64,000 nt of DNA from Heterodontus francisci (taxonomy: Eukaryota). Positions 12,596 to 12,863 of this stretch are shown here, one piece after another. The translations under genes were made by a program, and so were the position numbers. The stretch lies in the NCBI RefSeq assembly GCF_036365525.1, contig NC_090411.1, positions 31,946,432-32,010,431 of the forward strand, read 5' to 3'. The notes below the pieces were generated by a model. That model was not told the origin of the DNA, made no database searches, and worked only from the letters and a program-made list of their open reading frames with translations. The first letter of the stretch is position 1; the number at the start of each line of letters is the position of its first letter.

Positions 12596-12863
12596 AATCA
12601 CAGAATAATCTTGTAAACCAACCTGCATTCCACATCCCTGATTGGCTCTGGGTATCTCACCCCACCCACTGCTCCTTAATTGGTGCCTCGAGGCATGGAA
12701 GATTCCTGACTGGCTATCAGGGATTGTCAATCATCATTGGTGATGTCATTCCCTGTTTGAATGCAGGCTGATCCAGTTGCATAAATACAAGAGCTTGTGA
12801 GGGAAGTGGTTAGATTGCTGTTGTTGTGTTTGAATTTAACTTCTTTTAATAGTTGAAGTGAAG
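12565..12863 (+). promoter_or_regulatory. Type-B ferritin promoter of G3 (also G6, TATA position 34925; G10, 59095)
   Basis: Same conserved core (attcctgactggc..ttgtcaatcatcatt..tgatgtcattccctgtttgaat), CATAAATA at 12780-12787, and an extra inverted CCAAT (ctgattggct, approx. 12638-12647). Confidence 0.65.

Follow-up and report, generated by a model that had tools for sequence, protein, structure and literature searches.

Introduction

The closest described system to the locus analysed here is found in the Greenland shark, whose genome carries 155 ferritin copies annotated as 'FTL' and 179 annotated as 'FTH1', in clusters shared with the white shark (Sahm et al., bioRxiv 10.1101/2024.09.09.611499). 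The same preprint describes the shark ferritin cluster as at least 250 My old and the largest cluster as expressed specifically in the ovary of the Greenland shark; its main text contains no occurrence of 'IRE', 'UTR' or 'responsive'. IRP bound at an iron-responsive element (IRE) in the 5'UTR blocks ferritin translation at low iron (PMC11719527; PMC2896125).

Both the shark array and the existence of IRE-less gonadal ferritins in invertebrates are thus already known. Schistosoma ferritins are reportedly gonad-linked with a 5'UTR lacking an IRE. In the snail Biomphalaria, yolk ferritin has a 5'UTR without an IRE, whereas the classic ferritins have one (PMC10799875). Among vertebrates, FTMT is free of IRE/IRP control, and FTHL17 is expressed in germ cells, with six copies in mouse (PMC7760355). 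Tandem amplification of a fish ferritin has been described for fthl27 of the hadal snailfish (14 copies), an expansion which is recent and broadly expressed; 'IRE' does not occur in the available text of PMC10746142. Ferritin transcripts are plentiful in zebrafish follicles (PMC1488847).

The locus described here lies in a window of 64 kb, i.e. the whole stretch of Heterodontus francisci DNA that was analysed. It is a tandem ferritin expansion like that of the Greenland shark, and very probably the horn-shark counterpart of those clusters. The case we propose resembles snail yolk ferritin in being gonad-linked and IRE-less, but the snail protein is secreted, is encoded by a single gene and has a signal peptide and a 42-aa insert (PMC10799875), while the shark array consists of many genes of 173–174 aa without a signal extension. 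Freedom from IRE/IRP control, as proposed for the array, is shared with FTMT; however, FTMT is an intronless, mitochondrial retrocopy and FTHL17 has no ferroxidase activity (PMC7760355), whereas in the shark genes the four exons and the full ligand set are retained.

Results

Ten ferritin genes in tandem

The window contains ten four-exon ferritin genes (G1–G10) arranged head to tail, all on the + strand, which agrees with the ten copies counted in an earlier note on this DNA. Seven of them are intact and encode 173–174 aa; stops or frameshifts are present in G4, G6 and G10. Two promoter types were distinguished, A in seven copies and B in G3, G6 and G10, with 73–81% identity between types. 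Coordinates of all features are collected in Table 1.

Table 1. Features of the ferritin array. Positions are those of the window; each gene starts at its ATG.
Feature	Position	Strand	Remarks
G1, intact type-A gene	714..2931	+	UTR 666-713 with TGTTTGAAC at 680-688
G2, intact type-A gene	8478..10691	+	protein identical to XP_067876142.1 (Heterodontus francisci)
Proximal promoter of G3, common to all copies	12590..12779	+	CCAAT boxes
TATA-like box of G3	12780..12787	+	CATAAATA; G1 and G4 have TATAAATA
Predicted type-B 5'UTR of G3	12808..12863	+	56 nt, T-rich, no upstream ATG
Putative IRE relic, predicted 5'UTR of G3	12815..12840	+	also a degenerate (TTG)n tract
G3, intact type-B gene	12864..16813	+	173 aa, ferroxidase ligands kept
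G3 exons	12864-12965, 15246-15392, 15928-16053, 16667-16813	+	
G4, type-A pseudogene	20060..25879	+	exon 1 frameshift, exon 2 stop
G5, intact type-A gene	30039..32847	+	
G6, type-B pseudogene	35008..36971	+	codon-6 stop; relic at 34960 with 1-nt deletion
G7, intact type-A gene	40717..43635	+	
G8, intact type-A gene	47801..50587	+	predicted UTR 35 nt
G9, intact type-A gene	54418..57007	+	99% identical to G7
G10, type-B pseudogene	59178..61124	+	codon-6 stop, exon 2 17-nt deletion; relic at 59130 with 1-nt deletion

The ferroxidase ligands E27, Y34, E61, E62, H65, E107 and Q141, positions which we take from human H numbering, are present in all seven intact copies. Together with the four exons, this full ligand set fits a vertebrate cytosolic ferroxidase ferritin. 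The pooled pN/pS is 0.22 (21 pairs of intact copies), and the array protein evolves under purifying selection. Among the best 120 of 1257 matches, most of the closest relatives come from sharks and bear the names 'ferritin heavy chain B-like' or higher, middle or oocyte isoform-like. In the protein tree, in which no known FTH1 row is included, the chondrichthyan proteins form a clade (96/97) that lies next to M-type rows of amphibians, coelacanth and salmon.

Some further features of the array were observed. Residue 63, which follows the ligands E61 and E62, is W in G2, G3 and G6 and K in G5, in place of R. Segments 29300–46700 and 47100–64000 represent a recent higher-order duplication; the coding sequences of G6/G10 and G7/G9 are 99% alike, and G6 and G10 have the same codon-6 stop. 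ORFs resembling remnants of LINE reverse transcriptase are located at 13440–14431 (G3 intron 1), 5998–6627 and 19190–19621. A long hairpin in G8 intron 2 (49195–49329), probably an inverted repeat element, matches miRNA models below gathering score (E=0.0004).

A common promoter with a short predicted leader

A TATA-like box was found at the equivalent place in all ten copies. From this box, the start site of G3 is predicted at about 12808 and leaders of 35–56 nt are predicted across the copies, consistent with the TATA box and the 5'UTR of about 50 nt given in the earlier note. Two further elements are invariant in 10/10 promoters (12721–12753 in G3): TGTCAATCA lies upstream of the TATA box at about −55 and TGATGTCA at about −39. 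Together they form an imperfect inverted repeat; a second TGTTTGAA is located at 12754 in the G3 promoter. We take these elements to resemble TALE-homeodomain and CRE-like sites, and the pair is a candidate tissue element. Between the two types, the leader (73–82%) is less conserved than the core promoter (88%). No stable hairpin was found in the predicted G3 5'UTR (z=+0.46), and the leaders fold no better than shuffles.

All ten leaders also have a weak splice-acceptor-like YAG 8–21 nt before the ATG (e.g. the AG ending at 12852). Such sites could serve occasional upstream exons; 21–45% of the YAGs in the window are equally pyrimidine-rich. No CPE is present in the first 130 nt of the 3'UTR of any copy, and one copy in ten has an ARE consensus no further than 260 nt from the TATA box.

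The IRE is missing from the sequence of all copies

The Rfam scan of the 64 kb at gathering score gave no match of any kind, nor were IRE_I or IRE_II (RF00037/RF02253) among the 12 window-wide matches at E<=10. The sequence scanned upstream comprised the whole 2.2–5.5 kb spacer for G2–G10 and 713 nt for G1. As a control, the ferritin-L IRE in contig L001 scored 57.2 bits. This 928-nt contig (1–928) from the GTDB assembly of Paracoccus marinus is a mouse-type ferritin light-chain cDNA, i.e. a contamination; entries assigned to Salmonella and E. coli likewise include shark-like and salamander-like ferritins. A low-stringency Rfam search around the UTR gave unrelated weak matches only and no IRE_I/II. 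The loop CAG[A/T]G is absent between the TATA-like box and ATG+20 in 10/10 copies. With a working control, these data uphold the earlier claim that no copy has a CAGUGH hairpin.

A SIREs-like scan, confined to canonical loops, recovered the control and gave no match in the leaders. In the window as a whole it revealed one site on the + strand (17580) and two on the − strand. The + strand hairpin (17573–17592) consists of TGC, five pairs, a CAGTGT loop and one 3' bulge, and is intergenic, 0.77 kb past the G3 stop and beyond the G3 poly(A) signals. It was rejected as an IRE: the loop is kept in four other spacers, and the stem is broken or absent in the five homologous spacers covering it. Another hairpin at 15480 (G3 intron 2; 4/5 pairs) fails the SIREs-like rules. 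Absence of the IRE from all ten copies is hereby confirmed at the sequence level.

The features listed by Volz 2021 (PMC8466369) served as criteria for the leader of G3. Where the C14–G18 cross-loop pair is expected, G3 has T at 12824 and G at 12828, and the apical triplet A15–G16–U17 is replaced by T–G–T at 12825–12827. Position 19 is T (12829), which conforms to U/C. The bulged C8 has a counterpart at 12818 in type B only, without a stem to bulge from. Instead of five pairs, the upper helix has three, two of these G–U, and the predicted fold leaves 12817–12832 unpaired. By these criteria, of which features 1, 2 and 5 fail, the G3 tract is not an IRE. Single changes of C14 or A15 abolish regulation in vivo (Volz 2021, PMC8466369). 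On the predicted start site, the mRNAs are with high probability IRE-less. Because the IRE features fail in the leader, translation independent of iron status would follow, conditional on this start site.

A putative IRE relic in the leader of G3

The earlier note had described a decayed IRE at 12809–12840. The string is present there exactly as written, and the IRE to which it had been compared agrees with the mouse Ftl row (Volz 2021 Table S1, PMC8466369) and the Rfam IRE_I consensus. Our reference was the 26-nt IRE core of L001, which is of mouse-Ftl/Rfam-consensus type. Positions 12815–12840 match this core at 17/26 in blocks of 5+9+3, the top score and one reached at a single position among 127,950. 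In IRE numbering, the 5' arm (12819–12823) is replaced and the 3' arm (12830–12834) is kept; in the loop (12824–12829), C14 and A15 are replaced by T,T while G16–U19 are kept. With Rfam RF00037 (IRE_I), G3 shares 17/26 core bases, with C8, G16–U19 and the 3' arm in register, and a position close to the predicted cap; unlike it, G3 has no C14, A15, Rfam score or hairpin, and its upper stem is left with 3/5 pairs (2 wobble). The relic sits at the predicted cap; the zebrafish fth1 IRE spans nt 3–37 of its record (Volz 2021, PMC8466369). At both columns in which most FTL rows have U and FTH1 rows have C, the relic has T (Volz rows, PMC8466369).

The significance of this score depends on how it is assessed. 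Dinucleotide shuffles of the G3 leader gave p=0.0033, and a shuffled core, taking the best of ten copies, p=0.0047. Decoy 26-mers from L001 reached 17 in 0/843 cases in sense and 2/903 in antisense orientation (2/1746). With a degenerate motif of all nine ferritin rows p was 0.017, 30 of 127,950 positions being equally good. The full 35-nt IRE matches G3 at 18/35, a value equalled or exceeded at 100 window positions, and p was 95/1500 (0.06) when end-trimming of the 35-mer was allowed. Singly, the other nine copies are non-significant against the IRE core (p 0.05–0.35). G6 and G10 have a 1-nt deletion, need a gap and score 14/26; the ungapped alignment reported earlier therefore holds in G3, one of the three type-B copies, but not in G6 and G10, and the leading gttaga needs a gap.

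For the type-A copies, the earlier note had named a residual tgtttgaa(c). This is found in G1 as a 9-mer at 680–688 but is not uniform across the type: G5 also has the 9-mer, G2 and G8 have the 8-mer, and in G7 and G9 a 7-mer occurs; G4 has none of these.

Leaders of other sharks

In some annotated proteins, the translation runs through the promoter and leader (read-through proteins). We gathered 338 proteins, 292 of which could be anchored. N-terminal extensions are present in 17, and six of these 17 were aligned to leaders of the window. Heptranchias perlo P0179 scored best against G3 (102 vs 58–86), as did P0205 (47 vs 22–38). For Cetorhinus maximus, P0072 was best against G7/G9 (71 vs 56–67) and P0124 likewise, by a thin margin (29 vs 21–28). 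Heterodontus P0017 matches G4. Heptranchias P0177, tried as type A, scored 16–25 against all copies and matches none. P0177, P0183, P0209 and P0211 from this species have a common 18-residue extension unlike either leader, possibly a third leader type. Searches for further read-through proteins yielded 0/47 and, among 23 anchored new proteins, two salmon fusions; two other searches gave only the query itself and nothing, respectively.

Back-translation of the eight read-through peptides that are long enough showed that no codon choice exceeds 17/26 against this core. An IRE-less region corresponding to the UTR of the window appears to be present in the basking shark (type A) and in the sevengill shark (type B), as judged from four annotated models of two species, proteins which leave third codon positions unfixed. 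The earlier proposal, IRE loss preceding amplification, gains support and can be extended, as the read-throughs of Cetorhinus and Heptranchias align to the promoter/UTR and cannot encode an IRE. Heptranchias belongs to the Squalomorphii, and Cetorhinus and Heterodontus to the Galeomorphii, a split dated to about 250 My (bioRxiv 10.1101/2024.09.09.611499). Because an IRE-less leader lies behind the same TATA region in both branches, loss of the IRE probably predates this main split of the sharks.

Heptranchias reads L-F-H-A-V-V-F-E, which fixes T.CA in the register of the IRE 5' arm (G3 consists of T and G alone at this place) and GT.TT.GA in that of the 3' arm. The leader thus resembles an IRE whose two arms are present but whose loop is disrupted. 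This resemblance is only a lead because the read-through peptides alone do not score above shuffles against the IRE (74–261/300; incl. 127/300, 74/300, 247/300 and 225/300). All three species are compatible with the middle block, which comprises the loop half and the 3' arm. AAC, the third block, is confined to Heterodontus type B; type A has AGC, and the codons of Heptranchias and Cetorhinus need G as the middle base. By hand count, anchor spacing is 24 nt in Heptranchias compared with 20, and 12–15 in type A and Cetorhinus. With a tract length as labile as this (12, 15, 20 and 24 nt from anchor to anchor), the exact IRE spacing of G3 may be luck, and so may part of its IRE-core score.

G3 clusters with the type-A copies of Heterodontus in the protein tree (92/90), and the rows of Heptranchias form a group of their own (100/97), while the type-B leader is found across species. 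The combination suggests that the coding sequence has been homogenised, while the promoter types would be old.

Discussion

Origin of the leader tract

Taken together, the fossil proposed earlier keeps the best match of 127,950 positions, but p ranges from 0.003 to 0.06 with the handling of the post-hoc choice, and spacing and third block are not shared by the other sharks. On balance, we favour the TG-rich cap-proximal tract as a homologue of the old IRE. The overall explanation which we consider best, and to which we lean to a similar degree, is an ancient IRE-less shark array with a probable IRE-derived tract.

Possible, but distinctly less probable, is that the genes are IRE-less and that the fossil is a T/G-rich leader with a slipping (TTG)n which resembles the IRE by chance, the old IRE having been lost by deletion or having given way to a new promoter and leader. 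A pure TTG repeat agrees with G3 at 15/18 and by itself reaches 9/20 against the IRE core. A score of 17 is attained by one of ten copies only, and significance falls to p=0.06 once trimming is allowed. The type-A 8-mer occurs also upstream of the TATA box in 9/10 copies. Moreover, the relic loop lies 38 nt from the ATG, whereas the FTH1 mean is 165 nt (Volz 2021 Fig S5 legend, PMC8466369). Against chance, the top position of the whole search falls in a ferritin leader at the predicted cap, dinucleotide-preserving shuffles do not reproduce the score readily, and Heptranchias has C-A where the IRE arm requires these bases.

It is unlikely that the tract has been kept as a new element, be it a flanking stem or a GUU-rich site for a germ-cell RNA-binding activator. 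DAZL-like proteins are activators of this type. Every leader has 4–5 GTT triplets, and RNAalifold proposes a 10-pair flanking stem with 97% of cells paired. However, covariation in this stem is not above shuffles (105/500), half of it lies upstream of the predicted start, and the leaders neither fold better than shuffles nor equal the core promoter in conservation between types. The conserved flanking stem was also considered as a relic of the lower stem and rejected, there being no covariation.

The earlier note had likened the replacement of the 5' arm and the loop CA to a micro-inversion; that a single event of this kind destroyed the IRE, with its product kept in G3, we regard as improbable. 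G3 agrees at 5/7 with the reverse complement of the seven replaced bases, and three columns upstream of the IRE position lies a 6-nt reverse complement. Because a pure TTG repeat gives 5/7 too, and G3 follows that repeat closely, no micro-inversion is needed; in addition, the number of TTG units differs among type-A copies, and the type-B leader of Heptranchias has forward-strand T.CA at this place and is 4 nt longer.

Least probable is that an upstream non-coding exon or another start supplies an IRE and the genes are still iron-regulated: the acceptor-like YAGs of all ten copies, the shark models P0012, P0126 and P0314 (with N-terminal extensions apparently unlike the leader, possibly from predicted upstream exons) and the hairpin at 17580 would fit, but the full spacers of G2–G10 are without an Rfam IRE, the stem at 17580 is not maintained and lies beyond the G3 poly(A) signals, and the TATA region is conserved across three shark orders.

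Proposed mechanism and significance

In the reading which we prefer, an IRE-less array with a probable IRE-derived tract, each unit would be transcribed from the shared TATA promoter into an mRNA with a predicted leader of 35–56 nt, U-rich and without an IRE. Since IRP1/2 would have no binding site, no repression of translation is expected at low iron, by the known IRE rules. Copy number and a tissue promoter would then determine the output, most likely in the ovary by homology with the Greenland shark cluster, and storage capacity could be built before iron loading. By this analogy, a role of the array in the ovary is somewhat favoured. The IRE would have been lost before the Galeomorphii and Squalomorphii separated; the G16–U19 loop half and the 3' arm would survive in nearly all copies, and small indels and slippage of the TTG units, not a single inversion, would have worn away the 5' half.

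Reports of IRE loss in shark or fish ferritin arrays were not found in the open-access literature, the scope of our search. An ancient, multi-copy, intron-bearing IRE-less case in a vertebrate appears to be undescribed.

More tentatively, a broader reading may be offered. IRE loss in the ancestor of today's sharks may have enabled a ferritin that is cytosolic and catalytically intact to be amplified to hundreds of copies expressed in oocytes, which would make apoferritin whatever the iron status, as a vertebrate counterpart of snail yolk ferritin. The two promoter/leader types would be about 250 My old and would have kept different stages of IRE decay, with coding sequences homogenised within species.

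The relic itself has no likely function; if it is real, the array came from an IRE-bearing L/M-type gene. Loss of the IRE would provide a testable reason for the unexplained expansion of shark ferritins. In vertebrates, the IRE is usually viewed as a constant component of the mRNAs for cytosolic ferritins. An IRE-less family that is large, old, intron-bearing and under purifying selection would show that this switch can be dropped for a tissue which needs storage in advance.
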